64,000 nt of DNA, taken from contig DASTOB010000120.1 in assembly GCA_035720425.1 (NCBI GenBank), positions 229 to 64,228 of the forward strand, given 5' to 3'. This DNA comes from Candidatus Limnocylindrales bacterium (GTDB taxonomy: Bacteria > Chloroflexota > Limnocylindria > Limnocylindrales > CSP1-4). The stretch's first letter is position 1; every line of letters begins with the position of its first letter. The position numbers were made by a program, and so were the translations under genes. Below, piece after piece: positions 34,111-52,609 of this stretch. The notes under the pieces were generated by a model, which worked only from the letters and a program-made list of their open reading frames with translations, made no database searches and was not told the origin of the DNA.

Positions 34111-34277
34111 CTCCGGACGGCTGACGCCGAGCGCCGGAACCGCATACGCCGGACAACTGACGACCGACGCCGGACGGCGGGGCGTCGGCTGTCCCCCGGG
34201 CGCCGTCGCATCGACAACCCTCCACGCCACGGTCCACGTCCGCTACGCTGGTGTCTCGTTCCGGGGGTGAGCGAGGT

Positions 34278-37200: not shown

Positions 37201-37847
37201 CGAACGACCGGCTCGCCAACCTGGCTCAGCTCTACGTCATCGGTCTGCTCCGCGGGTCGCCCGATCCGGCGCTCATCGACGAGATCCGGCGGTCCGCGCA
37301 CGACGCGCCGCAGATCGCCGATGTCGAGCTGTGGGATGCGTTCGGGCGCGGGGACGCGACCGGCGCGATCGGGCACGGGCTGCCATTCGCCGCGGCGGAT
37401 GACCTCAATGCCCCGTTCGCTTACTTTCGGGTGGGGGTCGCGGCGGCCGTGGCTCGCGACGTCACGAACGCAACCATCGCGCTGACGAGCATGTCGGGCA
37501 ACCTGCGGACCGGGCGCTGGAACGAGGGCATCCTCGAGACGCTCCAGGCGATCGCCGCCGGCCTGGCCGGCGATCGGGTGCGGGCCGTGGAGCGCGGGCG
37601 GGCTGCGCTCGACATGTTCCGCTCGATGTCGGTCCGACTCGACGAGGGGCTCGCGGCGCTCGGGATCGCGGCCGCGCTCGGCCCCGACGACCCCGAGACG
37701 CCGGCGTTTGCCGACGAGGCCCGGCGGACCTTGACCGACGTCGGCGCGGCCGGCCTCCTGGAGATGTACCGGCCGATCGTGGCCCCTCGGCCCGGACGGA
37801 CCGTCGTCGAGCGCGCCGGTTCGACCATCGGCGTGACGGAGTCGTGA
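34278..37847 (+). CDS. Class III adenylate/guanylate cyclase with double zinc ribbon, STAND AAA and TPR domains
   Basis: CxxC x4. Cyclase VLFADLVGFT, EKFIGDAVMAVWG, GDLVNTASRLQ. Walker A GEAGMGKS, Walker B LVFEDLQWAD, GGIPLY. TPR-like C-terminus. Start uncertain (34251, 34278 or 34284). Confidence 0.92.
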   Translation: MGVICGSCGAANPAGAKFCLECGTPVSTACPRCGTAAVPGAKFCGECGERLTPTSAGPDLAATRIPGARPPGSADRGAANGGPLPVGAERRIVTVLFADLVGFTSLAEGRDAERVRDLLSRYFETASEIVARYGGTIEKFIGDAVMAVWGAPTAHEDDAERAVRAALDLVGSIGALGDELGAELSGRVGVLTGEAAVTIGATNQGLVAGDLVNTASRLQAVAPPGSVLVGEATRHAAGGSITFEPAGDAVLKGKAAPVPAFRALRVVAKSRGVGRSDSIEPPFVGRDVEFRLVRSAYHSVARERRARLVSITGEAGMGKSRLAWEFSKYTDGLAEKMWWHEGRSPSYGEGISFWALSEMIRKRAGLLEGDDEPTTRERIAAALVQHVPDADERAFIEPCLLTLLGVGAPPPGGRDRLFTGWRQFFERLASESPVVLVFEDLQWADDGLLDFIETLLEWSQSYPLFVLTLARPELLERRPAWGAGRNATSLPLGPLSDEAMRELLAGVVPQLPEASARTILARAGGIPLYAVETLRMLVASGRLENAEDGTLRAIGPLDVIDVPPSLQALIAARLDGLPAADRSLLQDAAVLGQTFATAALSALVGDGPDVLEPRLRGLVARDLLSLDTDPRSPERGQYGFVQSLIREVAYGTLAKRDRRTRHLAAARYFEALGDEELSGALATHYLAAYEAAADGPEADALAAQARIALRAAAERAANLGSPKQALAYFVAAADLPGDDADQLDLLERAGLVAEESGQHHRAADLFDQVVQQRRRAGDRLGAARATAARAEALMSNDVAAAQDLAESALTEYADLPEDRSEVLGLRYAVARCLLRSGRNADAAALLEGMLRAVEMTGDESFVLRVLATRGATLPAVGRSVEGAIILDGVIRRAERAGLFEIQDRARINLSVTLADDDVVAGRDVAASGFEDAVRRGAAGSAAYYAMNAAEYDLHIGEWDAASTRVREVLELGLEANDRLANLAQLYVIGLLRGSPDPALIDEIRRSAHDAPQIADVELWDAFGRGDATGAIGHGLPFAAADDLNAPFAYFRVGVAAAVARDVTNATIALTSMSGNLRTGRWNEGILETLQAIAAGLAGDRVRAVERGRAALDMFRSMSVRLDEGLAALGIAAALGPDDPETPAFADEARRTLTDVGAAGLLEMYRPIVAPRPGRTVVERAGSTIGVTES

Positions 37848-38237: not shown

Positions 38238-39686
38238 TCAGCCGCGCTTGCCAAACTCCCGACGCAGCGCCGATCGCGCGGCGAGGTGGCCGCACATGCC
38301 GTGGGCGCCACCCCCCGGCGGCGTCGAGGACGAGCACAGGTACACGCCGGGCAGCGGTGTGGCCCACGGATTCCGCTGCGGGATCGGCCGGAAGAACAGC
38401 TGGCGCAGGTCCTGGGCGCCACCGTTGATGTCGCCGCCGACATAGTTCTCGTCGTGCGCTTCGAGCTGCGCCGCGCCGTGCGTGGCGCGCGCGACCACGA
38501 GGTCGCGAAAGCCCGGCGCGAACCGCTCGACCTGGGTTTCGATGGCGCTCGTCATGTCGGCCGGCGACCCGTTCGGGACGTGGCAATACGCCCACGCGGT
38601 GTGGCTCCCGGCCGGGGCACGGGTGGGATCGAAGCGGGTCGGCTGGACGAGCAGGACGAACGGTCGCTCTGGAATCGTCCCGCCGTGGACGTCGCGCCCG
38701 ACGCGGGCGACGTCGGCGGCGGTCCCGCCCAGGTGGACGGTTCCGGCGCGGGCGAGCTCCGGCGACCGCCATGGAATCGGCCCGGACAGGGCCCAGTCGA
38801 CCTTGAACACCCCGGGGCCATAGCGAAACCGCTCGAGGGCGCTGCGGTAGCCGTCCGGCAGCAGATCGGCGCCGATCGCGAGCAGCTGGCGCGGCGTCAC
38901 GTCGAGCAGGATGGCCCGCGCGGGCGGCAGCTCGTCGAGCGAGCCGATCCGTCGGCCCGTCTCGATCTCGCCACCGAGGGTCCGCAGCTCGGCCGCGAGA
39001 CCCTCCGCCAGGCGGGCCGTCCCGCCGCGGACGAGCGGCCAGCCGGAGGCGTGGGCGGACAGCGCGAGGGCAAGGCCGAACGATGCGGTCGCCGGCCGCT
39101 CGAGCGGGACCATCGCGTGGGCGGCGAGTCCGGCCAGCAGGGCGCGCGCCGGCGCTTCGCGGAAGAGCAGCCGGCCGAGAGCCAGGTTGGGCAGCAGCGC
39201 CGGGATTCCGAAGCGCGCCTGCGCGATCGGGTGCCGCGTCACCTGGAGCGGGCGGCCGAAGATCCACGGCATGAGGCGGTCGACGTCGCGCACGAGGGGG
39301 CCGACCAGCCGACGATAGGTCGGTCCGTCGCGGCCGAGCGCGTCCGCCGTCGCCTCGACCGACCGCTCGAGCACCACCGCCCGTCCGTCGTCGAGCGCAT
39401 GGCCGACCGGTGCCTCCGGAACGACGTACTCGACGCCGTGTCGCGCGAGGTCGAGCGGGCCGCGCGGTCCGAGGAACGGGGACACCGCGGTCGTTCCGAC
39501 GATCGCGGTGCAGATGTCGTGGACGTAGCCGGGCAGGGTCAGCTCGCCCGAGCGGAGGCCGCCCCCGACCTCGTCGGCCGCCTCGAGCAACCGGACGGAC
39601 AGGCCGGCCCGGGCGAGCGTGATCGCGGCCGCGAGGCCGTTCGGGCCGGCGCCGACGACGACGGCGTCGAGCGAAGTCGAACTCAC
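38238..39686 (-). CDS. Phytoene dehydrogenase-like NAD(P)/FAD oxidoreductase
   Basis: VVGAGPNGLAAA, EVGGG, GYVHDICTA, YLCSSSTPPGGGAHGMCGHLAA. Confidence 0.88.
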   Translation of the reverse strand: MSSTSLDAVVVGAGPNGLAAAITLARAGLSVRLLEAADEVGGGLRSGELTLPGYVHDICTAIVGTTAVSPFLGPRGPLDLARHGVEYVVPEAPVGHALDDGRAVVLERSVEATADALGRDGPTYRRLVGPLVRDVDRLMPWIFGRPLQVTRHPIAQARFGIPALLPNLALGRLLFREAPARALLAGLAAHAMVPLERPATASFGLALALSAHASGWPLVRGGTARLAEGLAAELRTLGGEIETGRRIGSLDELPPARAILLDVTPRQLLAIGADLLPDGYRSALERFRYGPGVFKVDWALSGPIPWRSPELARAGTVHLGGTAADVARVGRDVHGGTIPERPFVLLVQPTRFDPTRAPAGSHTAWAYCHVPNGSPADMTSAIETQVERFAPGFRDLVVARATHGAAQLEAHDENYVGGDINGGAQDLRQLFFRPIPQRNPWATPLPGVYLCSSSTPPGGGAHGMCGHLAARSALRREFGKRG

Positions 39687-39780: not shown

Positions 39781-40518
39781 TCACCCGCCGCGTCGGCGCA
39801 GCCAGCGCGCGGGTGCGGTGAGCGTGCCGACCGCGGTCGAGAACGCCGGGCTGTGGCGGAGATTCCGCACGTACCGCCACTGGCGACGTCGGTCGACGCA
39901 CACCTTGGTCGTCTCGACCTCCGGCGTTGTCACGCCGAGCGTGCGAGCCAGGTTGGCAAGCGTTCCCACCCAGAAGCGATCGTTCATCCGGTTCGCGCCG
40001 AGCAGGTAGCTGAGCTCGATGAGCGGATCGCTCGTTCGCTCCAGCGCCTGGGCCTGGGCGATCGTGACGTCGCCGTCGCGATACGCGGAAAAGGTGATCC
40101 ATGCCGACAGGGCGTGTCCTTCCGGGGTCATGAACGTGAACGACTCCGCGTCAGCGTAGATGACGAGCACGCCCGTCGACATCCTGACCGGCGCCCCCGG
40201 GACGGCCTGGATCTCGAGCAGCGCGACCTCGCCCGGGGCGATGCCGGCCAGCGGCGCGTAGAACCGGTTGCCCTTCGGCCAGAACGATGGGAACTGCTCC
40301 TTCCAGTGGGCGACAACGTGCTCCGGCGTCGCGTCCGACCCATCGAGCCGAACGCGGAACGTCTTCTGCCACATCTGCCCGAAGCCCTGGACGGGGCCGG
40401 CGACGCGCTTGCCGGTGACGGTGTCCATGCCGGCCCCGGTGGCCGTCGTGGCCAGCCGGTCGACCGGGCGCGCCCACGACTCCCGGTCACGCGGCGTGCG
40501 CGGTTCGGTGGCGGTCAT
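39781..40518 (-). CDS. Conserved hypothetical protein, possibly DUF1990-like
   Basis: AGGAGG RBS. GPVQGFGQMWQK, FTFMTPEGH...WITFSA. Strong coding bias. The family assignment is tentative. Confidence 0.7.
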   Translation of the reverse strand: MTATEPRTPRDRESWARPVDRLATTATGAGMDTVTGKRVAGPVQGFGQMWQKTFRVRLDGSDATPEHVVAHWKEQFPSFWPKGNRFYAPLAGIAPGEVALLEIQAVPGAPVRMSTGVLVIYADAESFTFMTPEGHALSAWITFSAYRDGDVTIAQAQALERTSDPLIELSYLLGANRMNDRFWVGTLANLARTLGVTTPEVETTKVCVDRRRQWRYVRNLRHSPAFSTAVGTLTAPARWLRRRGG

Positions 40519-40577
40519 CACGGTCCTCCTGACTCTGTCCTCGCGATTGCCCCGCGGGGATCCGAATGCCTGGTTCC

Positions 40578-40610
40578 GTTCTACGCGCCGGCCGTCCGGG
40601 AATCGTTACG
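40578..40610 (-). promoter_or_regulatory. SARP-type heptamer direct repeat, site A
   Basis: Minus strand CGTAACG-ATTC-CCGGACG-N9-TAGAAC, inside the 3' end of the membrane gene and upstream of the DUF1990-like gene. Confidence 0.65.
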
Positions 40611-41810
40611 AGCCGTTCCTCGAAGCCAGATGGTGAGCCGACTCGGGGCGACCGCGCCCTCGACGGAATCACTCAGCGAGGCGGCGATCGACGTCGTGTC
40701 GAGCACGCCGCGCAAGCGCAGGCCGAAGGTGTCGACCGTTCGCTGCGCGTCGACCCGCGCCCGGTGGAAGCGCCGGTCGACCGCCGTCTGGACCCGGTGC
40801 CGGACGGGCTGGAAGAGTGCAGCGACCGCGAGCGTGGACCCGGCGACAGCCAGCGTGTTCCCACTCGTCCAGGGCGCGAGCAGACCCTGCAGGCTCACAA
40901 CCAGGATTGCGAACGTCGCGACGAGGATGGCGGTGACGATCGCCCAGCCCAGCGTCCGGCTAATGATCCGATCGATCTCGAAGAGGCGGTAGCGAAGGAC
41001 GGCGATCCCGGTGGCCGTCGGCAGAGCAATCCACGCGACGAAAGCCGGCGCGACGGCGACCAGGAGTGGCCCGACGTTCCTGGTGTCCGTTCCGGGCGCC
41101 ACGCCCGCCACGGCAAAGGAGACAAGGATCGTCAGCACTCCGATCGGCAGCAGGGCAAGCGCCGCGAGGATCCAGCGCAGCTGCAGCCGTTCCGTTCCGC
41201 TCGAGCGACGATACCGCCGCACCAGCGTGAGGAAGCCGGCTGCCCAGAGAACGATCTGGCCGCCGCTCAGAACCGTCCGGTACGGAACGAGGCTCCACGG
41301 CAGCTCGGCCTCGGGAGCGATCGCAACCGGGTTGGGCATTCCTCCGGGGAGGCCGGTCACGTGCGGTGGGTAGATGGTCGGCGCGAAGGCCACGAGCCCG
41401 AACAGGAGGGTCGACAGCGCACACAGGGCTGCCGGGGCACCGCCGACGAACCGGGGCCGGCCACCACCCGGGAAGTCGAGCACGAGGGCGAGGAGTGCGA
41501 CTGCCGCCGCCGGCCAGCCAGACGCCGCAAGCCAGGCGAGGAGGCGGTCGGCGAGCGGCGCGCTTCCGTCCGCCAGCGCCACCGGGTCGCCGGACACTTT
41601 CAGCGTCGCGAACAACCCGGCCCAGCCGATCGCGATGAGCAGCCAACCGACGGCGTTCCACGGGCGTCGGACTGCAAGCAGACCCCCGACGGCGGCGTAG
41701 GGCAGGGAGTAGACGAGCGTCAGGACGTCGCCGGCGGCCAGTGCGAGGGCGACCGCGGCAGCCGTAGCAAGGCCGACGCCGAGGCCGCGCAGCAGGCTGA
41801 GACACGCCAT
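40581..41810 (-). CDS. Multi-TM sensor-like membrane protein ending in a partial GAF (paralog 1)
   Basis: About 9-10 TM helices. VGGLLAVRRPWNAVGW, NPVAI, ERLQLRW, IAVLRYRLFEID, LFQPVRHRVQTAVDRRF, ends AVAPSRLTIWLR...RNDSRTAGA*. Confidence 0.85.
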   Translation of the reverse strand: MACLSLLRGLGVGLATAAAVALALAAGDVLTLVYSLPYAAVGGLLAVRRPWNAVGWLLIAIGWAGLFATLKVSGDPVALADGSAPLADRLLAWLAASGWPAAAVALLALVLDFPGGGRPRFVGGAPAALCALSTLLFGLVAFAPTIYPPHVTGLPGGMPNPVAIAPEAELPWSLVPYRTVLSGGQIVLWAAGFLTLVRRYRRSSGTERLQLRWILAALALLPIGVLTILVSFAVAGVAPGTDTRNVGPLLVAVAPAFVAWIALPTATGIAVLRYRLFEIDRIISRTLGWAIVTAILVATFAILVVSLQGLLAPWTSGNTLAVAGSTLAVAALFQPVRHRVQTAVDRRFHRARVDAQRTVDTFGLRLRGVLDTTSIAASLSDSVEGAVAPSRLTIWLRGTARNDSRTAGA

Positions 41811-41820
41811 CGCACGCGAA

Positions 41821-42177
41821 TCAGGTCCCGACGGCGGCGAGAGCGTCGGCCTGCGAGTCGTGGATCGCGATCGCCTCGTCGAGGCGCGTGAGCGAGAAGA
41901 TCTGGCGGTAGTGCTCGTCGAGCCCGGCCGCCAGCAGCCGCTGGCCGTTGCGCTGCGCGCGCACGAGGAGCGTCACGAGGAGGCCGATGCCGCCGCTGTT
42001 CATGTACTCGAGTCCGCCGAAGTCGAGGATGATCGTGCGCGCGCCGCCGCCGGTCGCCGTCACATAGGCGGCCATGAGCGCCGCCTCGCTGGCGCCGGTG
42101 ACGTCGCCGTCGATCCGGATGACGCTGGCCGTCGGATCGTCGGTCGAGCGCAGGTCGATACGGGTCGGATCGGTCAT
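41821..42177 (-). CDS. STAS-domain anti-sigma factor antagonist (RsbV-like)
   Basis: VIRIDGDVT, IILDFGGLEYMNSGGIGLLV (phospho-Ser), IFSLTRLD. Confidence 0.93.
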   Translation of the reverse strand: MTDPTRIDLRSTDDPTASVIRIDGDVTGASEAALMAAYVTATGGGARTIILDFGGLEYMNSGGIGLLVTLLVRAQRNGQRLLAAGLDEHYRQIFSLTRLDEAIAIHDSQADALAAVGT

Positions 42178-42518
42178 CGGTTCCCCTCCTGCTCGTCGTC
42201 CAGGACCACGTAGTCGGACAGCCTCGTGATCCGGAAGATCTCGCGGTAGTGCTCCGTCAGGTGGACGGCGTGGACCTCGCGGCCATCGCGCCGGGCCTCC
42301 GCAAGGAGGCGGACGATGAGCGCGATGCCGGTGCTGTTGATGTAGCCGACGCCGGCGAAGTCGAGGATGAGCCGCCGGGCGCCGAGCGCGGCCACGCTCA
42401 CGTACGCGTCGGCCAGGCCGGCGTCCGCGGCGACGTCGATGTCGCCGCCGAGCCGGATCCGGACCGCGTCCGGGACCGTCTCCACGTCCGCCCGGAAGCG
42501 GCGGGTCTGCACGTCCAT
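42174..42518 (-). CDS. STAS-domain anti-sigma factor antagonist (RsbV-like)
   Basis: IRLGGDID, LILDFAGVGYINSTGIALIV, IFRITRL. Confidence 0.93.
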   Translation of the reverse strand: MDVQTRRFRADVETVPDAVRIRLGGDIDVAADAGLADAYVSVAALGARRLILDFAGVGYINSTGIALIVRLLAEARRDGREVHAVHLTEHYREIFRITRLSDYVVLDDEQEGNR

Positions 42519-44132
42519 TCAGGACTCCTTGCGGGCGAGTCGCAGGGTGACCGTCTGGCCATCCCCGTCGCTTGCCACGTCCATCTGGTCGACCATGTTT
42601 CGGATGAGGAACAGGCCCCAGCCGCGCGGCTTCTGCTCGCCGGCCAGCTTGGCGTCAATGTCCGGGGCCTCGGCGTCGTCGGGGACCGGGCCCGACAGGG
42701 CCCGATCCGTGATCCGCACGACCACCTCGGCCGGCGTCGCGGCCACGACGAGGTCGACCGGCACGTCCTCGCGTCCAAGGCTCCCGTACTCGATCGCGTT
42801 CATCGTCGCCTCGCTGACGGCGGTCTTGAGCCGCTCGAGGCGGCGGCCGTTCAGCCCGAGGGGTGCGACGACGTCGGCGACCCGGTCCATTGCGCTCCGC
42901 TCGTTGCCGATCGCACCGGGCACGGAGAACGCCGCGAGCAGCTCCTCGCCCGGGTCCGCCCCGGCCGGTTCGGCGGCGGCGACCTCGCCGGCGCGGCGCA
43001 GGGCGACCATCGTGATGTCGTCCTCCTGCTCCCAGGTCGGTCCGGTGAACGCATGCAGGTGTTCGAGGACCCGATCGATGACATCGGACCCCGGAACGTC
43101 GAGCGTTGCGAATTCGTCGCGCAGGCGCGGGAAGCCGTACATCTCGCGCTCCGGGCCGTGGGCCTCGACGACCCCGTCGGAGTAGAGGAGGACGGTCGAT
43201 CCGGGTTGAATGACGGCCTCGGTCTCCTCGTACGCAACCCCAGCGAGCAGCCCAAGCGGCATGCCGGTGGCCCGGATTTCGGTGACCCGGTCGGCCGAGC
43301 GCACGTACGGCAGGTTGTGCCCGGCATTGGCGATGACCATCCGTCCCGATGCCGGTTCGAGGAACACGAGCAGGCACGTGACGAACATGCGGTTCGGCAT
43401 CTCCGGCACGAGCAATTCATTCGCCCGCGCGAGCACGGCGCCCGGCGACGGCGACCGCGACGCCTCGGCCCGCAGGATCGAATGGGTGCGGGCCATGACG
43501 AGCGCGGCCGGCACGCCCTTGTCGGTCACGTCGCCGACGACGATCGCGATCCGTCCGTCCGGCAGCTCGATGAAGTCGTAGAAGTCGCCGCCCACGGCGC
43601 GCGCGGGTCCGTAGTACGCGGCGACCTGCCACTCGGGGAGCCGCGGCAGGTCGCGCGGGAGGAACTGCTGCTGGATGAGCGTGGCGACCCGGAGCTCTTG
43701 GTCGATCCGCTCGCGCTCTGCCGCTTCGGCGGCCTGTTCCTGGACGAGCTGGGCGACGCGGATCGCGGGGGCCGCCTGGGCGGCCAGCGTGGCGAGGAGC
43801 CGCCGGTCGTCGGTCGAGTATTCCTGCTCCGACAGGCGTGGCCCCAGGTACAGGGCCCCGATCAACTCGCCGGACGTGACGAGGGGAACGATCAGCGAGA
43901 TGCCGGCGGCGCGCAGTTCGGCCAGGGCCGGGGAGGCGAGCTCGAGGCGGTAGACGTCGACCGCGCCGCTCGCGCCCTGGAGGTAGGCGAAGAGGGGGTC
44001 CGACGGCGCGATCTCGACGGCCGGCGCCTCAGAGACGGTCGGCACGGCAACTGGCTTGGCCACGACGGGTGCCTGGAGCGCGGTGTCGCCACCGAGTCCG
44101 ATGGTCCGGCGAATGGTGCGGAGCAACGTCAT
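42519..44132 (-). CDS. Partial GAF + SpoIIE/RsbU PP2C phosphatase + RsbW-type HATPase fusion
   Basis: GAF C-half SLIVPLVTSGELIGALYLG...DRRLLATLAAQAAPAI. PP2C VGGDFYD, GDVTDKG, LYSDGVVE, EDDITMV. RsbW AVSEATMNAIEYG, RGWGLFLIRNMVD. Confidence 0.92.
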   Translation of the reverse strand: MTLLRTIRRTIGLGGDTALQAPVVAKPVAVPTVSEAPAVEIAPSDPLFAYLQGASGAVDVYRLELASPALAELRAAGISLIVPLVTSGELIGALYLGPRLSEQEYSTDDRRLLATLAAQAAPAIRVAQLVQEQAAEAAERERIDQELRVATLIQQQFLPRDLPRLPEWQVAAYYGPARAVGGDFYDFIELPDGRIAIVVGDVTDKGVPAALVMARTHSILRAEASRSPSPGAVLARANELLVPEMPNRMFVTCLLVFLEPASGRMVIANAGHNLPYVRSADRVTEIRATGMPLGLLAGVAYEETEAVIQPGSTVLLYSDGVVEAHGPEREMYGFPRLRDEFATLDVPGSDVIDRVLEHLHAFTGPTWEQEDDITMVALRRAGEVAAAEPAGADPGEELLAAFSVPGAIGNERSAMDRVADVVAPLGLNGRRLERLKTAVSEATMNAIEYGSLGREDVPVDLVVAATPAEVVVRITDRALSGPVPDDAEAPDIDAKLAGEQKPRGWGLFLIRNMVDQMDVASDGDGQTVTLRLARKES

Positions 44133-44138
44133 GACGGT

Positions 44139-44171
44139 GTTCTACGCCTCCTTCGTCCGGAAATCGTTACG
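44139..44171 (-). promoter_or_regulatory. SARP-type heptamer direct repeat, site B
   Basis: CGTAACG-ATTT-CCGGACG-N9-TAGAAC-N6-ATG(44132). Confidence 0.7.
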
Positions 44172-45410
44172 GGATCGGAGCCACACACCGGCGGCAGCCG
44201 GGCTCATGGCGGCACCAACGGTGTTCTTGAAGTCGCCCTCGAGATCAGCCAGGTCGAGCTGTGAGCGCAGCCGCTCGCCGAACGCGGCCGCGACGCGCTC
44301 GCCGTCGTAGCGCGCCCGGTCGAAGCGCCGGTCGACCACGCGCTGGACCCTCGAGCGGAGTGGTGCGAACAGCGCGGCAACGACCAGCGTCGAGCCGGCT
44401 ACCGCGAGGGTGTCCCCTCCCGTGATCGATCCGAGGAGGTTGGACAGTCCGACGACGAGGATGATGAACGAGCCGACCAGCGCTCCGCTGACGATCGTCC
44501 ACGCGATCGTCCGGCTGATGATCCGGTCGATGTCGAACAAGCGATAGCGCAGGATCGCGGCCCCGATGGCCAGCGGCAGGGCTAGCACACCGAAGTACGC
44601 GAGGACGGCCGTAATGAGGATCCCGTCATCGACGCGCAGGGCAGACTCGATGGCAGTTCCGACAAATGCCACGATCACGAAACCCATTGCCGCGAGCAAC
44701 CAGCGGATCTGCAGGCGCTCGACGACGGTCCCGCGGCGATACCGGGTCACGAGCCCGAGCGCGCCGAAGGCGATCACCGCGATCAGTTGAAGCAGCAGGC
44801 TGTCGGCGAGGGGTGCCAGCGCCGCCGGCCAGCCCACCAATCCGAACGGATTGCCGCCGCCGCCCTCGAACAGCGGACCCGGGCGAAGCGCCAGTGCCGC
44901 CAGGCTCGTGCTCGTGATCCCGATGATCGCCAGCGATGGCGCGCGCCAGCGCGGCGACGGCAGCGTTCCCGTGGGGAAGAGAAGCGGCAGCCAACCGACG
45001 ATGAGGGCCATGCCCGGGTAGGAGAGCAGGAGCCCAGCCCACTGGATCACGCCGGCGGTCCCCCGGTCGGCCCCAGGCGTCAGCTCGCCACCGGCCGTCC
45101 AGATCAGCCCCAGCAGGGCGAACAGGGGGCCGCACAGCAGCATCAACAGGCCGATCGCGTGGCCGGGACGGCGCCACGCGATCACCGCTCCGACGAGCGA
45201 GAACAGCAGCGCGGTCGCGTTGAAGACGAGGACGAGCGCGATCGGCTCGACACCACCCGACTCACGCCGCGCATTGAGGCTGAGCAGGGCAACGGACAGA
45301 CCAAGCGACGCGGCGATCGAGGCCACCATCGCGGCGACCGCGAGTGGGCCGGGGCGGTGCTTGACCGACCCTCGCGGGTCATCTTGGCGCAGCGATCGTG
45401 TCGCGCTCAT
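44142..45410 (-). CDS. Multi-TM sensor-like membrane protein ending in a partial GAF (paralog 2)
   Basis: VGAVIAWRRPGHAIG, FPTGTLPSPRWR, NPFG, ERLQIRW, ILRYRLFDID, LFAPLRSRVQRVVDRRF, ends AMSPAAAGVWLRSRNDFRTKEA*. Start re-assigned to ATG 45410. Confidence 0.87.
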   Translation of the reverse strand: MSATRSLRQDDPRGSVKHRPGPLAVAAMVASIAASLGLSVALLSLNARRESGGVEPIALVLVFNATALLFSLVGAVIAWRRPGHAIGLLMLLCGPLFALLGLIWTAGGELTPGADRGTAGVIQWAGLLLSYPGMALIVGWLPLLFPTGTLPSPRWRAPSLAIIGITSTSLAALALRPGPLFEGGGGNPFGLVGWPAALAPLADSLLLQLIAVIAFGALGLVTRYRRGTVVERLQIRWLLAAMGFVIVAFVGTAIESALRVDDGILITAVLAYFGVLALPLAIGAAILRYRLFDIDRIISRTIAWTIVSGALVGSFIILVVGLSNLLGSITGGDTLAVAGSTLVVAALFAPLRSRVQRVVDRRFDRARYDGERVAAAFGERLRSQLDLADLEGDFKNTVGAAMSPAAAGVWLRSRNDFRTKEA

Positions 45411-45456
45411 CGCCGCCACGGCCCGACTGCAGCGGCACGGTGCGCGACGTGGTCGA

Positions 45457-45660
45457 TCATCGTTCCACCCGGGCGCGTGGCCGCAGCCAAATGTCCGCGC
45501 CAAACGGTCGGACCGCGCGGTGCGCGGTCGTGACTACCAGTTCGATCGGTCCCGACGATCGCTGCTTCAGGGTCAGGCCGCCGATCGGAATTGCCACGGA
45601 CACCACACATGCGGGCAGCCAGGGAGCGGCGACGTCGGGCCGAACGCTGTCGATGCGCAC
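45457..45660 (-). CDS. Putative 67-aa microprotein carrying only the AVxP-x5-WLR half-GAF tail
   Basis: VRIDSV...TTAHRAVRPFGADIWLRPRARVER* has the same P(+6)W-L-R spacing as the three membrane paralogs. Its GTG sits exactly 6 nt after the hexamer position of SARP site C. Confidence 0.55.
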   Translation of the reverse strand: MRIDSVRPDVAAPWLPACVVSVAIPIGGLTLKQRSSGPIELVVTTAHRAVRPFGADIWLRPRARVER

Positions 45661-45666
45661 GTCAGG

Positions 45667-45699
45667 AGTTTCTCCGAGAAACGTTCCGGGAACGTTACG
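45667..45699 (-). promoter_or_regulatory. SARP-type heptamer direct repeat, site C (divergent intergenic region)
   Basis: CGTAACG-TTCC-CGGAACG-N9-GAAACT-N6-GTG(45660). The regulator's own TACCGT-N6-GTG lies 20 bp away on the + strand. Confidence 0.7.
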
Positions 45700-45730
45700 G
45701 AATCGTGGCCACAAGCGCTACCGTTACGCC

Positions 45731-48688
45731 GTGCCTGGTTCGGATCGCCTCGACATCCGGCTGCTCGGCCCGCTCGAGATCGTGGCGGACGGCCGGCCAC
45801 TCGTCGTTGACACGCGCAAGGCGCTCGCGATCGTGGCGCTCCTCGCCGCGGAGCGTCGATCGTTCGCACGGGAGGAGCTGGCGGCGCTGCTCTGGCCGGA
45901 CGCGGACGACGAGTCGGCCCGCGGGGCCCTGCGTCGCACGCTGTCGTCGCTGCGTGCGGCGCTTGGGGGCCGATGGCTGCGCGCGGATCGCTCGACCGTC
46001 GGGCTCGACCCGGACGGCGTGTCGGTCGACCTCGATCGGGCTACGGCCGTTGCGGCAGGCGGGTCTGTCGGCGACCTCGCCGCCGCGGCGGACCTGCATC
46101 GTGGCCCGTTCATGGCCGGCTTCACCCTGCGCGACGCGCCGGAGTTCGACGACTGGCAGGCGGCCCGCGCGACTGCCGTCGCCGCCCAATTCGCCGGGCT
46201 GCTCGATCGACTCACGTCGGCCTTGCACGAGGCGGGCGATGCGGCCGGGGCCGTGGCGGCGGCGCGTCGGAGGATCGACCTCGACCCGCTCGACGAGGGC
46301 GGTCAGCGACGGCTCATCGAACTCCTCGCCGCGACGGGCGATCGATCCGGGGCCATTCGCCAGTACCGCGCCTGTGTCGCCGTGCTCGAGGCGGAGCTCG
46401 GGGTCCCGCCGCTGGCCGAGACCACCGAACTCTACGAACGCGTCCGGGACGACCGGGTCAGCACGTCAGCCGCGGTCGCGCCGCTGACTTCACCACCTTC
46501 GCCGGTTGCCGGAGCTCCGCGCCTTCCGGCTGCCGATGCACCACCATTCGTGGGCCGCGCCGGCGAACTCGAGACCCTGCTCGCAGCCCACGGCGCGGTC
46601 GACCGCGACGGCGCGCTCGCGATCGTCGAGGGCGAGGTCGGGATCGGCAAGACCCGCCTCGCGGAGGTGTTCAGCGACGCCGTGCGTCGCCGCGGCGCGC
46701 GCGTGCTCGGTGCGCGCTGCTATCCGGGCGAGCAGTCGGTCGCCTACGGTCCGATCATCGCGCTGCTCCGAGCCGGCCTGGCGCTGCCGGGCGGCGCGGA
46801 CCGGCTCGCCTCGCTCTCGGAGGTGGCGCGAACCGCCCTCACATCCCTCGATCCGGCGGTGAGCGCCGGCGGCGGACGTCGTGGCCGATCGCTCGTCCCC
46901 CTCGACGAGGGTGCCGCCCGCGCGCGATTGCTCGACGCGATCGCCGACGGGTTGACCGCCCTCACGGTGGGTGACGCAGCGGGGCTGGTCTGGCTCGACG
47001 ACGTCAACTGGGCGGACGAGGCGACGCTCGAGACGATCGCCTACCTCGGCCGCCGCCTCGCCGGCCGGTCGCTGCTCGTGCTCGTGACGTGGCGGCGCGA
47101 GGACCTCGACGGCATCGCGCTCCAGACGGTCGCCGGATTCGAGCGGACCGCCCGCGCCCACGTCCGTCTGCGGCGACTCGACCGAGATGCCGTTGCATCG
47201 CTCATCGGCGCCCTCGCCCCCGACGAGTCACGGCAGCCCGGCGTGATCGACGCGCTCGCGACGCGATCCGAAGGCGTTCCGCTGTACATCGTCGAGGCGC
47301 TTGCCGCTCCACGGCCGTCGGCCGCACCTGCGATCGCAACGGCGACGGCTACCGCCATTCCGCCTGGCGTGCGGGCGCTCGTCGCCGAGCGGCTGGCGTC
47401 GCTCGATGGTGCAGCCGGGCAGTTGATCGCGGCCGCCGCGGTGATCGGCCGATCGTTCGACGCGGGGATGTTGCGGCACGTCAGCGGCCGAACGGAAGAC
47501 GAGGTGATCGACGGCCTCGACCGGCTCGTGCGCCGGGGGTTCGTGCGCGAAACGGCGACCGCGACCGTGCGCGAGCCTGCGTTCGACTTCGTCCACGGCA
47601 GCGTTCGCGAGGTCGTCCTCGAGGGTTCCAGCCTGACCCGGAAGCGCCTCCTCCACCGGCGTGTCGCCGAGGCGGTCGCCGCCAGGCCGGTCGCTTCGCT
47701 CGGCGAGCCTGCCGTCGTCGACCGGCTCGACGGTTCCGTGGCGGCGTCGGCCGCGGTTCACCTCCGTGATGCCGGCCACGATCGCGAGGCTGCCCTGGCC
47801 TTTGCCAGGGCAGCAGACCATGCGCGATCGGTCCACGCCAACGCGGAGGCGGCCGAGCTCGCCCGGTCGGCGCTGGCACTCGGGCACCCGGACCCGGCCC
47901 GACTCCACGTCGTCCTCGGCGACATCGCCACGCTGTCCGGACGCTACGGAGAGGCGATTGCCGAATTCGAGGGCGCGGCGGCCGCCGCGTCAGCCGCGTC
48001 AGCCACGTCACCCGCGTCGACCTTGTCGGCCGCGTCGGCCGACGACGAGGCCCGGGACCGCCTGGCCGACCTCGAGCATCGGCTCGCCCTCGTCCATCAG
48101 CGCCGTGGCGATCCCGACACGGCCGACACCCACTTCGTCGCCGCGCTCGAGTTGACCGCCGACCGAGCGACGCGGGCGCGCATCCTCGCCGACCGGAGCC
48201 TCGGCGCGCATCTCGCGGGTCGGGGCGAGCAGGCCGCCGCGCTGGCGGCCGACGCGCTTGCCGCGTCCGACGAGTCCGGTGACGACCTCGCGCGGGCCAG
48301 GGCGGCCAACGTTGCCGGCGTCCTGGCCACCGAGCGCGGCGATCCCGCCGCGGGGCGGGTGCTTATCGAGCGGAGCCTCGCCCTCGCCGAGGCACGCGGC
48401 GAGATCCCGGCTCGGATCGCCGCCCTCAACAACCTCGCGCGCGCGGTGGCGGCGACCGGAGACGTCGACCTCGCGATCGAGTTCACCGATCTCGCCCTCG
48501 GCCTGTGCCGCTCGATCGGCGATCGACACCGCGAGGCGGCCCTCCACAACCATCGGGCCGACCTGCTCCGCGAGGCGGGGCGGCGTGACGCGGCCATCGA
48601 CGAGCTGAAGCAGGCGGTGGCGATCTTCGCCGATGTCGGCGAGCCGGGGGAGCTCGAGCCAGGCAAGTGGCGCCTGGCCACGTGGTGA
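45731..48688 (+). CDS. AfsR/SARP-family transcriptional activator (OmpR-type wHTH, BTAD, STAND AAA, TPR)
   Basis: IRLLGPLEI...RKALAIVALL...REELAALLWPD...ARGALRRTLSSLR. BTAD HRGPFMAG...FDDW...DPLDE...AIRQY...LGVPP. Walker A GEVGIGKT, WLDDVNWAD, EGVPLY. TPRs. GTG 45731 is preceded by TACCGT-N6. Confidence 0.93.
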   Translation: MPGSDRLDIRLLGPLEIVADGRPLVVDTRKALAIVALLAAERRSFAREELAALLWPDADDESARGALRRTLSSLRAALGGRWLRADRSTVGLDPDGVSVDLDRATAVAAGGSVGDLAAAADLHRGPFMAGFTLRDAPEFDDWQAARATAVAAQFAGLLDRLTSALHEAGDAAGAVAAARRRIDLDPLDEGGQRRLIELLAATGDRSGAIRQYRACVAVLEAELGVPPLAETTELYERVRDDRVSTSAAVAPLTSPPSPVAGAPRLPAADAPPFVGRAGELETLLAAHGAVDRDGALAIVEGEVGIGKTRLAEVFSDAVRRRGARVLGARCYPGEQSVAYGPIIALLRAGLALPGGADRLASLSEVARTALTSLDPAVSAGGGRRGRSLVPLDEGAARARLLDAIADGLTALTVGDAAGLVWLDDVNWADEATLETIAYLGRRLAGRSLLVLVTWRREDLDGIALQTVAGFERTARAHVRLRRLDRDAVASLIGALAPDESRQPGVIDALATRSEGVPLYIVEALAAPRPSAAPAIATATATAIPPGVRALVAERLASLDGAAGQLIAAAAVIGRSFDAGMLRHVSGRTEDEVIDGLDRLVRRGFVRETATATVREPAFDFVHGSVREVVLEGSSLTRKRLLHRRVAEAVAARPVASLGEPAVVDRLDGSVAASAAVHLRDAGHDREAALAFARAADHARSVHANAEAAELARSALALGHPDPARLHVVLGDIATLSGRYGEAIAEFEGAAAAASAASATSPASTLSAASADDEARDRLADLEHRLALVHQRRGDPDTADTHFVAALELTADRATRARILADRSLGAHLAGRGEQAAALAADALAASDESGDDLARARAANVAGVLATERGDPAAGRVLIERSLALAEARGEIPARIAALNNLARAVAATGDVDLAIEFTDLALGLCRSIGDRHREAALHNHRADLLREAGRRDAAIDELKQAVAIFADVGEPGELEPGKWRLATW

Positions 48689-48728
48689 CGCGCTGAGCGA
48701 CGCGCCGCCCGATCGGCCGAGGAAGCGG

Positions 48729-49949
48729 TCAGCCGTCGCCCCGCCCGGCGCGCAGCCAGAGCGCGATCCGATCCGGCTCGACGGCGCTCGCGGCGACGGC
48801 CACTGATCGCTCTCGCAGCGTGGCGAGGTCGACCTCGTCACGCAGGTGGTCGGCGAACGCCGCGGCCAATCGCTCCGCGTCGAACCGCGCGCGGTGGAAG
48901 CGCCGATCGACGGCGCGCTGCGTCCGGGCCCGGACGGGCGCGAAGAGGCCCGCCACGAGCAAGGTCGACGCAGCGACGACGAGCGTGTCTGCCTGGACGA
49001 TCGGAGCCAGCACCCCCTGGAGGACGAGGTTCGCGCCGAGGAACACGATCGTCAGGACGGCCGTTACCGCCGCGTAGCCGATCGTCCGGCTGACGATGCG
49101 GTCGATCTCGTACAGCCGGTAGCGAAGGATCGCGATCCCGATCCCGATCGGGATGAGCAGTGGCGAGACGACGACGAGGATCAAGGCGACCGTCGCGATT
49201 GGATCGCTCCAGTTCGAGACGAACAGGATCGCCATGCCGGACGCGGCCGCCGCGGCCGCGGACAGCACCCAGCGGATCTGCGCGCGGACGCGAGGGGACG
49301 ACCGTCGGTACGTCACGAGCGAGGCAGCAAGCGACAGGAGCGCTGCGAGGCTGAGGAAGCGGGGTGCCCATTCGGCCGCCAGATCGAAGACCTCCACGGG
49401 GAGACTGAAGATGGCAATCGGGTTGGCCGAAATGAGGATCCACGAGATCGGCACCTCACCCGGACGCCAGAGCTGGAGTGCCTGGAGTACGGCGAAGACG
49501 ACGATCAGTGCATCGATGATCCGCCACTGCCTGCCCGGTAGGCGGCCGTCCGGAAACCGGGCCAGGATCACCACGATCCCGACGAGGCCGAACCATTGCA
49601 GGTACGCGGTCAGGTTCGCGCCGACGATCAGGACCGCCGGCAATCGTCCTGGCGCTACGTCGGCAATCGCGACGATCGCCACGATGGCGAGCTGCACGCC
49701 AAGCACAAGGCCGGTCGCGAGGCAGATCCGACCGATCACGTTGCCCGGCCGCCGGGACACGATGAGCGCTCCGACCATCGTGAAGCCGACCGCCAGCGCG
49801 GGCGACCAGACCAGCTCGGTCACGTCGGCGTAACCGCGTCGAATGAACACCACGACCCAGATGCCGATGATCGCGACGGCGATCGCGAACAGCAGGGCGA
49901 GCAGGAGCCCCCGCAATCTCCACGCTGCGCGATCGGGCGGGGCGATCAC
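48729..49949 (-). CDS. Multi-TM sensor-like membrane protein ending in a partial GAF (paralog 3)
   Basis: VGALIVSRRPGNVIG, FPDGRLPGRQWR, NPIAI, RAQIRW, IAILRYRLYEID, LFAPVRARTQRAVDRRF, ends AVEPDRIALWLRAGRGDG*. GTGA-coupled to the nucleoside hydrolase gene. Confidence 0.87.
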   Translation of the reverse strand: MIAPPDRAAWRLRGLLLALLFAIAVAIIGIWVVVFIRRGYADVTELVWSPALAVGFTMVGALIVSRRPGNVIGRICLATGLVLGVQLAIVAIVAIADVAPGRLPAVLIVGANLTAYLQWFGLVGIVVILARFPDGRLPGRQWRIIDALIVVFAVLQALQLWRPGEVPISWILISANPIAIFSLPVEVFDLAAEWAPRFLSLAALLSLAASLVTYRRSSPRVRAQIRWVLSAAAAAASGMAILFVSNWSDPIATVALILVVVSPLLIPIGIGIAILRYRLYEIDRIVSRTIGYAAVTAVLTIVFLGANLVLQGVLAPIVQADTLVVAASTLLVAGLFAPVRARTQRAVDRRFHRARFDAERLAAAFADHLRDEVDLATLRERSVAVAASAVEPDRIALWLRAGRGDG

Positions 49950-51388
49950 TCGGCCACCTCAAACGACGCCGCGAGGCCATAGGTGAGGTTGGGCAACTCT
50001 CCCGTGATGCACAACCCGCGGAACGATCCGTCCCTGACCTCGACGAGCCCGGAGCCGGTGGCGTTCCTCTCCGCTTCGGCGAAACCGGCGATGAGCACCC
50101 AGCTCGGCGGCTGCCCGCCCTCCTCGCCAGCAAGCTCGGCGAGCAGCGTCTCGAACTCGGCCCACCCGTGGGGTGGCTGAATGCCGACGACGACCAGTCC
50201 GGCGGGCCCCGACGTCTCGTTCACGAGGTGGGCACGGTACATCCCGGCTTGGGCGGGCGTCGAGCCCTCCGCTGAGCAGGTCCTACCGTCCCATCGGACG
50301 GTCATGTCGCCGCGGATGGCGAAGGGATCCGCTCGCGGTCCCCCGCGGCGGAGCGCCTGAAGCAGCGCGGCCTCGACCGCCGGCCGATCGGCCGCCGTGG
50401 CGAACCGGATCGGCCGGCCGGCGGGATCGCGATCGATCCGACCGGCGGCGGTCGCGCTGACCGTCGCATCCGCCCACGTGACGAGGTCCTGATCGGAGAC
50501 CGCGAGCGCGGCGAGTTCGTCCCACAGCTGGCCACCGGGAAGCGACAGGCGCTCCGGGAACCGGACGAGCAGCTCGTAGGCGAGGTCCGCGCCCGCGGCC
50601 GCGTGATCCTCCTCGAGGCGTTCGAGGAGGTCTGGCGGGACGGGCACGTCATCGGTCGCGTCGAGCGGGACGAGCGTGACCGGGACGTCGAGCGCGAGGA
50701 CCGCGGTGAACGCGTCGGCATCGGCCACGACGTTCCACTCCAGCCGGTCCGCCTCGGCCACGCCGTCGACGAGGACGTTGCCGGGCGCGTCGATCGCGCC
50801 GGCCATCGCGTGGATGCCCGCCACGTCGTCGACGAGCGCAGGGTCGGCCGCGAACGCATCAGCGATGTTCGTCCACGGACCCAGGGCAATGATCGTGATC
50901 GGCTCCGCGCTCGCGGCGATGACCCGCGCGATGAGGTCGGCCGCCTCCTCGGGAATCCCGGCTTCGACCACCGGTGGAATGTCGAGGCCGTACGCGCCGT
51001 CGGCCTGATCGCGCCACTCGGCTGGGAACGGTCGGCCATTCGGTCCGATGCTCTCGCGCCCGCAGGCGAACGGGACGTCCGTCCGCTCGAGCTGCTCGAG
51101 CAGGTAGCGGGTCACCCGTCGGCCGCCCGCGCAGTGCACGAGCCCGGTCCCGTCGATCGCGATGGCCCGGACGTCGAGCGCCGGGTCTCGCAGTAGGACG
51201 GCGACCGCGAACAGGTCGCTGATGTCCATGTCCGCGTCGACGATGACCGGTCGGGGCAGTCCGGACGGTGGCTCCGCTACGGGCGGCAGGCTGGGAGACG
51301 TCGTCGACGGCGAGCACGCGGCGGCGAGACCAGTTGCCCAGAGCGCGGCGGTGACGAGCAGGCCGAAACGACGGTTCCGTGGGTTCAT
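49946..51388 (-). CDS. Lipoprotein nucleoside hydrolase (IU-NH fold) with extra C-terminal domain
   Basis: Lipobox GLAAA|C. VIVDADMDISD (DxDxxxDD variant), IALGPWTNIA, MAGAI...GN, EWNVVAD, LVPLDAT, LWDELAA. Confidence 0.85.
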   Translation of the reverse strand: MNPRNRRFGLLVTAALWATGLAAACSPSTTSPSLPPVAEPPSGLPRPVIVDADMDISDLFAVAVLLRDPALDVRAIAIDGTGLVHCAGGRRVTRYLLEQLERTDVPFACGRESIGPNGRPFPAEWRDQADGAYGLDIPPVVEAGIPEEAADLIARVIAASAEPITIIALGPWTNIADAFAADPALVDDVAGIHAMAGAIDAPGNVLVDGVAEADRLEWNVVADADAFTAVLALDVPVTLVPLDATDDVPVPPDLLERLEEDHAAAGADLAYELLVRFPERLSLPGGQLWDELAALAVSDQDLVTWADATVSATAAGRIDRDPAGRPIRFATAADRPAVEAALLQALRRGGPRADPFAIRGDMTVRWDGRTCSAEGSTPAQAGMYRAHLVNETSGPAGLVVVGIQPPHGWAEFETLLAELAGEEGGQPPSWVLIAGFAEAERNATGSGLVEVRDGSFRGLCITGELPNLTYGLAASFEVAE

Positions 51389-51395
51389 GCCGCAC

Positions 51396-51428
51396 AGGAA
51401 AGCGGTCCGCCGCTACGGACTCGTTACG
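51396..51428 (-). promoter_or_regulatory. SARP-type heptamer direct repeat, site D
   Basis: CGTAACG-AGTC-CGTAGCG-N9-TTTCCT-N7-ATG(51388). The first heptamer contains the upstream gene's TAA. Confidence 0.6.
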
Positions 51429-51870
51429 GAAGCGCGCCCCGGTCGAACCAGATCCGCTCGCCGGCGAAGCGCTCGGCGACTGGGTCCCACGGAAAGAGGA
51501 TGAGCACCTCGAGGCTGACCGGCATTCCGGATGGCGGAGCTCCCGCCCACGGGCCGAGGTTCGTACCGGTCAGCCGCGCCGCCTCGAACACGCCCTGCGG
51601 GCCGACGACGACCTCGGTCAGGGCAAACGCGTTGTCGGGGAAGGCGGCGAACAGCTCCGTGTAGAAAGCGCGCGCACCCGCGTGACCGTCCCAGCGCTGC
51701 CCGGTCGGCACGATCTCGTACGTGCAGTCCGCCGACAGCGTGGCGACGAGGCCGTCCACGTCGCGCCGATCCTCGGCGATCGAGTGGCGGACCCACAGCC
51801 GCTTGATACGCCGCAGCTCCGCCGGGTCGAAGCGGCGCCCGAGCTGCTCCCGCATCGCACGTGCTGTCAT
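51424..51870 (-). CDS. SnoaL-like/ester cyclase (NTF2-fold) protein
   Basis: HSIAEDRRDVDGLVATL...GHAGARAFYTELFAAFPD...GTNLGPWAGAPPSG...GERIWFD. GGAGG RBS, ATG 51870. Confidence 0.85.
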   Translation of the reverse strand: MTARAMREQLGRRFDPAELRRIKRLWVRHSIAEDRRDVDGLVATLSADCTYEIVPTGQRWDGHAGARAFYTELFAAFPDNAFALTEVVVGPQGVFEAARLTGTNLGPWAGAPPSGMPVSLEVLILFPWDPVAERFAGERIWFDRGALP

Positions 51871-51907
51871 CCGGGCATCCTCCCACGCCGATACACTCGC
51901 GCGCACC

Positions 51908-52609
51908 GTGCCCGACGAAGTGACCGTCCTGACATCCCGCGATCTCGAGATCGGCGGCCGCCCAGCAACGTGGTTCGAGCTGGAGGGTTCGTCGACCGCG
52001 CCGGAGCGCCTCGAGGCATGCTTCGACGCCCTCGAGCGGGCGCTCGCCGGGCATGGCCTGACGCTCGCCGACGTCGTGCGCAGCCGCATGACGGCTGCGA
52101 CGCGCGAGGGCCGCGCCGCCGCCAGCGCGGTCCGGCTGCGCCGCCTGTCGGTCCCGTTCCCGTGCGCGACGTCGAGCTACATCGATCCGTCCGCGTTCGC
52201 GGGATCGGACGGGATCCGGCTCGCCACGCTGGCCGTGCGCCGAGCAGGCCTGGACAAGACCGCGATCGCGCACGACCCCTCACCGCCGCCGTGGAAGTTC
52301 GTTGCGACCGGCGACCTCGCGTTCCTGTCGGGGATCACCTCACCGGCCGACGGGTTCGACGCGCAGCTCCCGGAGATCCGCGCGCGGGTCCTCGCGACGC
52401 TGGCGATGGCGGAGCAGCGGATCGGGCGACCGATCCGGCCGACGACGGTGTCGGCCTACGTCGGTCGGTCCATTGCGCTCGAGACGGCCGGCGATCTCGC
52501 CGCGCGGGTGGGCCTCGCGGGGACGCCGATCGCCGTGCGGCGTTGCGACGGCTTCGCCTCGCCCGCGTCGCTCATCGAGATCGAGATCGACGCCGCGCCG
52601 GGGGATTGA
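51908..52609 (+). CDS. Tandem RidA/YjgF-fold-like hypothetical protein
   Basis: CFDALERALAGHGLTLADVV, LAFLSGITS, SLIEIEIDA resemble YjgF motifs, apparently duplicated. Confidence 0.55.
   Translation: MPDEVTVLTSRDLEIGGRPATWFELEGSSTAPERLEACFDALERALAGHGLTLADVVRSRMTAATREGRAAASAVRLRRLSVPFPCATSSYIDPSAFAGSDGIRLATLAVRRAGLDKTAIAHDPSPPPWKFVATGDLAFLSGITSPADGFDAQLPEIRARVLATLAMAEQRIGRPIRPTTVSAYVGRSIALETAGDLAARVGLAGTPIAVRRCDGFASPASLIEIEIDAAPGD

Follow-up and report, generated by a model that had tools for sequence, protein, structure and literature searches.

Direct-repeat boxes beside a SARP-STAND gene in a Limnocylindria genome: predicted operators of a signalling regulon

The DNA analysed here, termed the window, is a 64-kb stretch (C120:229-64228) of a 3.0-Mb assembly in 217 contigs (genome G000), a metagenome-assembled genome (MAG) of Limnocylindria (Chloroflexota); no actinomycete context applies to the features described. 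Within it lies an island of genes encoding related membrane proteins, signalling components and a large AfsR-like regulator (SARP-STAND), in which a direct-repeat element, the box, occurs on the minus strand as four copies (A to D). We describe the genes and boxes of this island, the conservation of the box in related genomes, and the reasons for regarding its strong copies as probable operators of the adjacent SARP-STAND protein. Genes were placed using third-position G+C content and Pfam; the features are as follows, in order of coordinates.

38238-39686, minus strand: gene for a FAD oxidase-like protein
39781-40521, minus strand: unk246, a conserved 246-residue protein and syntenic operon member
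40578-40583, minus strand: box A hexamer TAGAAC, in which TAG is the stop codon of paralog 2
40581-41810, minus strand: membrane paralog 2
40593-40610, minus strand: box A, CGTAACG-ATTC-CCGGACG; position weight matrix (PWM) score 41.2 bits; overlaps the last codons of paralog 2, with unk246 downstream
41821-42177, minus strand: STAS gene (Pfam)
42174-42518, minus strand: STAS gene (Pfam)
42519-44132, minus strand: GAF-SpoIIE(PP2C)-HATPase_c_2 gene, here the phosphatase gene (Pfam)
44130-44144, minus strand: predicted -10 hexamer and start following box B; TAGAAC at 44139-44144 (TAG is the stop codon of paralog 1), N6, ATG at 44132
44142-45410, minus strand: membrane paralog 1; the open reading frame (ORF) spans 44142-45503, with ATG 45410 as the likely start
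44154-44171, minus strand: box B, CGTAACG-ATTT-CCGGACG; PWM score 40.5 bits; upstream of the phosphatase gene
45658-45672, minus strand: predicted -10 hexamer and start following box C; GAAACT at 45667-45672, N6, GTG at 45660
45682-45699, minus strand: box C, CGTAACG-TTCC-CGGAACG; PWM score 30.1 bits; in the divergent intergenic region beside the SARP gene
45719-45733, plus strand: predicted core promoter of the SARP gene; TACCGT, N6, GTG at 45731
45731-48688, plus strand: AfsR-like SARP-STAND gene, between paralog 3 and paralog 1
48729-49949, minus strand: membrane paralog 3, lacking its own box; overlaps the hydrolase gene end
49946-51388, minus strand: nucleoside-hydrolase-like gene, downstream of box D
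51411-51428, minus strand: box D, CGTAACG-AGTC-CGTAGCG; 11.5 bits; TTTCCT at 51396-51401, N7, ATG at 51388
51424-52089, minus strand: gene for a SnoaL-like protein (Pfam and third-position G+C)

The pattern CGTAACG-N4-CSKRRCG matches the window exactly four times, always on the minus strand (0.01 matches expected from 100 shuffles), and these matches are the four boxes that an earlier note on this DNA had located; the heptamer CGTAACG alone is not enriched, with five occurrences in the window and 3.4 expected. The N9 spacers, the hexamers, and the start codons placed six or seven nucleotides beyond the hexamers of boxes B, C and D likewise read as that note gave them. Its description of four boxes of near-identical geometry, one preceding each minus-strand transcription unit, stands in part: boxes are present before these units and A, B and C are strong, whereas D is a poor and doubtful copy, and the scheme of one box per unit is too simple, as A and B overlap coding tails. 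Boxes A and B overlap the last nine codons and stop of paralogs 2 and 1 (40% identical to each other), in a common frame in which CGT AAC GAT TYC CGG ACG encodes R-N-D-S/F-R-T.

Each box has a distinct relation to the gene that follows it. Box A is separated from unk246 by a leader of about 56 nt that carries AGGAGG before the GTG start; between the box A hexamer and this Shine-Dalgarno sequence, at 40540-40560 on the minus strand, lies a palindrome, CCCCGCGGGG, without a T-tract, which could form a leader hairpin. The GTG at 45660 that follows box C opens only a 67-codon ORF (45457-45660, minus strand; VRIDSVRPDV...IWLRPRARVER), not paralog 1, whose ATG at 45410 is 250 nt beyond and in a different frame; in other genomes box C mostly sits directly before a full-length paralog. 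A BLASTP comparison of the short ORF with the paralogs gave only E = 0.16, and its derivation from a paralog tail is not demonstrable. In box D the second repeat, CGTAGCG, lacks G14 and A16 and the hexamer lacks A2, while the TAA within the first repeat is the stop codon of the upstream SnoaL-like gene. With the matrix of sites from other genomes described below, 89 CGTAACG occurrences of this genome were scored, and box D took seventh place at 11.5 bits; we regard the chances that it functions as about even, and then at best as a weak site.

As the earlier note had proposed, we scanned the whole genome and examined conservation upstream of orthologues. Forty-five sites were collected, 38 of them from other genomes, and the scanning matrix was built solely from the latter. 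Applied to the genome of the window, this matrix returned six strong sites scoring 25.7-41.2 bits, with the next best match at 14.8; these are boxes A, B and C and three boxes on other contigs, C137:30602(-), C118:4654(+) and C167:2654(+). All six lie upstream of a gene on the same strand, and the three outside the window each precede a further membrane paralog, none being located in a coding tail. The boxes of the presumed regulon do lie in the island, as had been claimed, yet their recurrence before paralogs on these other contigs makes the set wider than that claim. The consensus of the 38 foreign sites is ccCGTAACG-aTtc-CcGgACG-N9-nAggaT: positions C1-G7, A16 and C17 never vary, G14 and likewise G18 occur in 36 of 38, and in the hexamer A2 is found in 36 and T6 in 31. 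The layout of seven, four and seven nucleotides is retained in all 45 sites, both repeats being conserved and sharing an ACG end.

Orthologues of the SARP-STAND protein, 37-51% identical over their full length, were recovered from eight further genera of this family and from additional MAGs in the public collection. The 15 loci mapped share a common order with minor variants: the SARP gene, a divergent box C, one to six tandem paralogs, box B, and an operon encoding the phosphatase, two STAS proteins, unk246 and the FAD oxidase. The position of box C is occupied in all 15, always adjoining the divergent SARP-STAND gene, and a box precedes the phosphatase gene in all 14 loci that hold this gene; the element is kept throughout the orthologous loci. 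In one variant (L042) the box beside the SARP gene directly precedes the phosphatase operon. In another (L045) paralogs are interposed between the STAS genes and unk246, as in the genome of the window, and the box before unk246, again with a leader, is the equivalent of box A. A locus whose SARP is 37% identical (L043:3866-3900) carries the heptamers as an inverted pair, CGTAACG-gttt-CGTTACG, with a direct-repeat box 430 nt away before the phosphatase gene.

The relation of B-type boxes to upstream coding sequence varies among the 16 such sites. The box is read in frame 0 of the paralog tail in the genome of the window and in L045, and in frame 2, with TAA as the stop, in L040; it is fully intergenic, 7 to 47 nt past the upstream stop, in L014, L016, L017, L019 and L044. 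This independence of frame, together with the location of the boxes on other contigs outside coding tails, argues that conservation operates at the nucleotide level. In the window the phosphatase ATG follows 12 nt after the TAG stop of paralog 1 and shares its frame, and the arrangement TAGAAC-N6-ATG occurs also in L016, L017, L019, L032 and L033; the two do not share a frame in L019 and L033, however, and the paralog of L016, L017 and L019 ends 35-47 nt upstream, so that a read-through fusion is not a conserved feature.

The product of the gene at 45731-48688 is, by profile matches and a structural model, a SARP with an OmpR-type winged helix, BTAD, NTPase and TPR regions. The BTAD domain (PF03704, residues 111-239) reaches 65.8 bits, the cut-off being 22.1, and a phmmer search matched EmbR to residues 5-240 (E 1.5e-8). 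The AF2 model of residues 1-260 has a pLDDT of 93.9; its only strong Foldseek matches in the PDB are the SARP domain of AfsR (8K60, 8HVR) and EmbR, with a TM score of 0.72 over about 255 columns. The C-terminal region, containing AAA_16 (residues 272-450) and TPR_12 (896-966), is that of a large, AfsR-type SARP. Membership of the AfsR orthologue family itself (NCBIfam NF053617) was considered and rejected, the match amounting to 46.1 bits against a cut-off of 1430 and being confined to the TPR part. The predicted core promoter of the SARP gene accounts for the fifth CGTAACG of the window: this heptamer (45722-45728) is the reverse complement of the SARP -10/discriminator region, 29 nt from box C, and its presence is explained by the conserved offset between box C and the core promoter arranged back to back with it. 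The sequence TACCGT-N6-start and the 29-nt spacing recur in L014, L015, L038, L039, L041 and L044.

Across 25 genomes of the family, the box follows the regulator. All nine genomes with a SARP orthologue contain strict matches, one to seven each and 34 in all; the 16 without an orthologue contain two in all, in two genomes (Fisher p = 2.7e-5 for co-occurrence, ignoring phylogeny). A reversed pattern used as a control showed no such bias (four matches with the orthologue, 13 without). The paralog family has the same distribution as the box and the SARP. The recognition helix reads ARGALRRTLS in every genome with a CGTAACG box. More distant STAND-SARPs of Chloroflexota have helices xLRSTL, SLRNTL or SLRYTL, and in the same place, each followed by 8-9 nt and TAnnnT, are different repeats: TTCACGC-N4-TGCACGC, TGTGACG-N4-TGAGACT or TCTAACG-N4-TCTAACG. 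That the repeats change together with the recognition helix is the best available argument that the box is read by the adjacent protein and not by another regulator.

The distant boxes merit description in their own right. Nine loci (L046, L048, L049, L050, L052, L053, L059, L064, L070) have their own box of the form 7-4-7-(8/9)-TAnnnT, about 20-200 nt upstream of the STAND-SARP gene and on the opposite strand; their hosts belong to Roseiflexaceae, Chloroflexia, Aggregatilineales and other groups. Among them, written with their spacers, are TTCACGC-tttt-TGCACGC, TGTGACG-tttt-TGAGACT and TCTAACG-ctct-TCTAACG, the last a perfect repeat. Judged by eye only, the divergent ORF of L046 and L048 has an N-terminus resembling a SnoaL-type 'ester cyclase'.

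The alternative that survives best accepts the boxes as activator sites and assigns them to another winged-helix protein encoded elsewhere, such as an OmpR/PhoB-type response regulator or a small SARP on contig C18, the adjacent SARP-STAND gene being a member of the regulon. The Pho box has an almost identical architecture, the genome does contain further SARP-domain genes (for example C18:19787-20590), and co-occurrence cannot separate a regulator from its regulon. Yet neither a response regulator nor any other DNA-binding gene belongs to the conserved island in the 15 loci, the box abuts the SARP gene promoter at a fixed spacing, and it is with the helix of the adjacent SARP that the repeats of distant homologues vary; we consider a foreign regulator unlikely.

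The complete module spans 33 bases: two repeats phased by 11 bp, N9, and a hexamer carrying the A2/T6 signature of the housekeeping (sigma-70) -10 element. In at least 27 of the 45 sites a long ORF begins 6-9 nt past the hexamer, which gives the boxes the appearance of promoters of leaderless genes. Across the genome, TANNNT likewise clusters upstream of candidate start codons: offsets of 6-9 nt gave 116, 95, 51 and 61 counts and the remaining offsets about 5-15, and leaderless genes with a -10 element at this distance appear to be common in this genome, several hundred by a rough, sequence-based estimate. With the start codon taken as +1, the box lies at about -39 to -22. Its GTAACG is 20 nt from the hexamer, leaving a weak core without a usable -35 element. 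A consensus scan found no sigma-70 consensus promoter in 40400-51600 and no intrinsic terminator in the island.

These features bear on a second alternative, already raised in the earlier note, that GTAAC(G) is the -35 element of an alternative sigma factor of extracytoplasmic-function (ECF) type and that no activator is involved. GTAACG does resemble ECF -35 motifs containing AAC; SigD of M. tuberculosis is reported to recognise GTAACG-N17-CGAT; and anti-sigma-type partner-switching proteins are encoded in the island. The alignment of 38 sites speaks against this reading in two respects, since the would-be spacer (positions 12-18) is conserved like the first repeat, and since no conserved -10 of CGT or GTC type occurs 16-17 nt downstream, the conserved hexamer being that at 20 nt. 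Partner switching, moreover, controls sigma factors of SigB/SigF type rather than ECF factors; a promoter of that type was tried as a candidate for the island and rejected, since its consensus (GTTT-N14-16-GGGTAT) does not occur here. The conserved island contains no sigma gene, and we judge an ECF promoter to be very improbable.

A function at the RNA level, for instance with the element serving as a motif of the leader or as a site of processing some 30-40 nt before the start codon, is less probable still. Such a role would suit its fixed distance from the start codon, its fixed orientation and the GGAGG found in the N9 of many B sites; against it, the stem potential does not exceed 3 bp, the positions are invariant and without covariation, the hexamer has a -10 signature at the exact distance of the leaderless TANNNT of this genome, and phasing by 11 bp is a property of double-stranded DNA. 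Least credible of all is that the boxes are alike simply through paralogy, A and B being conserved C-terminal tails (R-N-D-x-R-T) that lie in frame at the ends of two related paralogs: box C, like the boxes on C137, C118 and C167, precedes a gene and is not part of a tail, the rare arginine codon CGT is invariant in a genome of 72% G+C, paralog 3 has the same C-terminal domain and no box, and frame analysis of the 16 B-type sites, with orthologous boxes in other frames or fully intergenic, rules out a coding artefact for A and B.

We therefore return to the proposal, first made in the earlier note, that the SARP-STAND protein activates the genes behind the boxes; it draws support from the geometry of the repeats, the fold of the protein, its adjacency to the box in 15 loci, the co-occurrence, and the covariation of helix and repeats. 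On this combined evidence from sequence and structural modelling, the strong boxes are probably operators of the adjacent SARP-STAND activator and would form part of activator-dependent promoters. Each of the six (A, B, C and those on C137, C118 and C167) would constitute the upstream half of such a promoter, the units CGTAACG+N4 and nCGRACG+N4, of 11 bp each, occupying the -35 position, with a sigma-70-type -10 hexamer, nAnnnT, 9 bp downstream of the repeats. In this scheme two SARP protomers would sit side by side as a dimer, each contacting one repeat, and would bring in RNA polymerase by the 'sigma adaptation' that AfsR uses at afsS. Leaderless mRNA, initiated at the start codon itself, would result at boxes B and C, while box A would direct a transcript bearing its short leader. 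The regulon would comprise the multi-copy membrane proteins, which resemble seven-transmembrane (7TM) proteins, and the operon of GAF-PP2C-HATPase, two STAS proteins, unk246 and the FAD oxidase-like gene. Relative to the target start box C is centred at about -30.5, and relative to the predicted start of the SARP gene, with whose leaderless promoter it stands back to back, at about -40.5; feedback of the SARP on its own gene through box C is geometrically plausible and may occur.

Several points weigh against this interpretation. The Pfam profile Trans_reg_C for the winged helix is below threshold (15.2 against 26.2 bits). The genomes in which box and SARP co-occur are not phylogenetically independent, and the identical distribution of the paralog family ties the box to the whole island without singling out the SARP. 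The second repeat is 9 bp from the -10 hexamer where the textbook distance is 8; CGTAACG and CCGGACG have only their ACG end in common, a self-similarity below that of many SARP operators; and T6 is missing from the B-type hexamers, TAGAAC, which also supply stop codons. The GGAGG in the N9 of many B sites raises the prospect that conservation partly serves translation or coding, and box D departs from the consensus.

Several features of the island lie outside this argument. The GAF-SpoIIE-HATPase_c_2 gene and the two STAS genes (41821-44132, minus strand) are, as judged from their domains, a partner-switching module. A homologue search retrieved more than 1000 relatives of the membrane paralogs, every one annotated 'hypothetical protein', of which one longer relative bears HisKA_7TM; neither Pfam nor NCBIfam provided a family assignment for the paralogs or unk246. 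The paralog family is heavily expanded in some relatives (24 copies in G023, 14 in G011), mostly as tandem arrays in which a box is usually found at the first gene only. Just upstream of the island, at 34161-37847 on the plus strand, a second STAND protein of 1228 residues combines a double zinc ribbon, an adenylate/guanylate cyclase domain, AAA_16 and a long C-terminal region. At the opposite end (51424-52455, minus strand) the frame of the SnoaL-like gene continues open upstream (52177-52455, third-position G+C 0.90) past a single in-frame stop at about 52177, which may reflect a pseudogene, a misassembly or two adjacent genes.

The comparisons across genomes support the recognition of a new operator and predicted regulon of the established SARP kind, whose phylum is new and whose predicted targets are signalling genes. 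SARPs have been studied almost solely as switches of antibiotic clusters in actinomycetes, and our literature search yielded no publication dealing with SARPs of Chloroflexota or with partner switching under SARP control. Here comparing genomes was enough to derive a complete operator consensus and a proposed regulon for a lineage of another phylum, uncultured and from freshwater and soil. The proposed targets are signalling parts, an uncharacterised membrane-protein family and a PP2C/anti-sigma/STAS module, and the boxes offer a handle on the function of that large family of 'hypothetical' proteins. Promoters predicted within the last codons of a preceding gene matter for operon prediction in genomes rich in leaderless genes, and natural pairs of helix and operator could reveal how SARPs read DNA. 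A more speculative extension, which we put forward tentatively and think more doubtful than not, is that STAND-SARPs form a phylum-wide system of Chloroflexota, reaching into MAGs labelled Actinomycetota, in which each subfamily has its own 7-4-7-9 operator beside its gene and one or two helix residues (ALRRTL, xLRSTL, SLRNTL, SLRYTL) track the repeats (CGTAACG, TCACGC, TGTGACG, TCTAACG); in Limnocylindria a single box would drive both divergent leaderless promoters, and internal promoters would reuse the preceding stop codon as a -10 element. If true, a SARP recognition code would be readable from genomes alone.

Among known systems, the pho box of the PhoB/OmpR family consists of two 7-bp direct repeats with a 4-bp A/T-rich spacer and takes the place of the -35 element, about 10 bp before the -10; its reader is a phosphorylated response regulator, unlike the situation in Limnocylindria, where the conserved island encodes none. 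EmbR of Mycobacterium tuberculosis (PDB 2FEZ, 2FF4), a SARP controlling the non-antibiotic cell-wall genes embCAB, shares the winged helix and BTAD fold (TM about 0.7) and differs from the SARP of the window in its operator and in having a C-terminal FHA domain instead of NTPase and TPR regions. PimR-type operators consist of heptamers with 4-nt spacers, of which two repeats are needed (PMC5930380). The boxes resemble those of PimR (a SARP-LAL; CGGCAAG) in their heptamer direct repeats and less conserved 4-nt spacers and in the placement of the operator in the intergenic region beside the regulator, where it is kept across species; the main PimR operator differs in having three repeats, in not overlapping a -35 element, and in targeting the single regulator gene of an antibiotic cluster. 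The closest parallel is AfsR. Its afs box in the afsS promoter of Streptomyces coelicolor comprises two 11-bp direct repeats at -40 to -19 overlapping a poor -35, and in SARP target promoters generally the direct repeats recur every 11 or 22 bp, with 8 bp separating the 3' repeat from the -10 (PMC10936776). The regulator of the window is, like AfsR, a large SARP with winged helix, BTAD, NTPase and TPR, and its boxes likewise place two 11-bp units over the -35 region (about -39 to -18), with a poor or absent -35 and a long spacer, in a layout that differs by about 1 bp. It departs from AfsR in a SARP-domain identity of only about 23-26%, in its repeats (CGTAACG and CCGGACG), in predicted targets that are leaderless, and in a proposed regulon of membrane proteins and partner switching in Chloroflexota.

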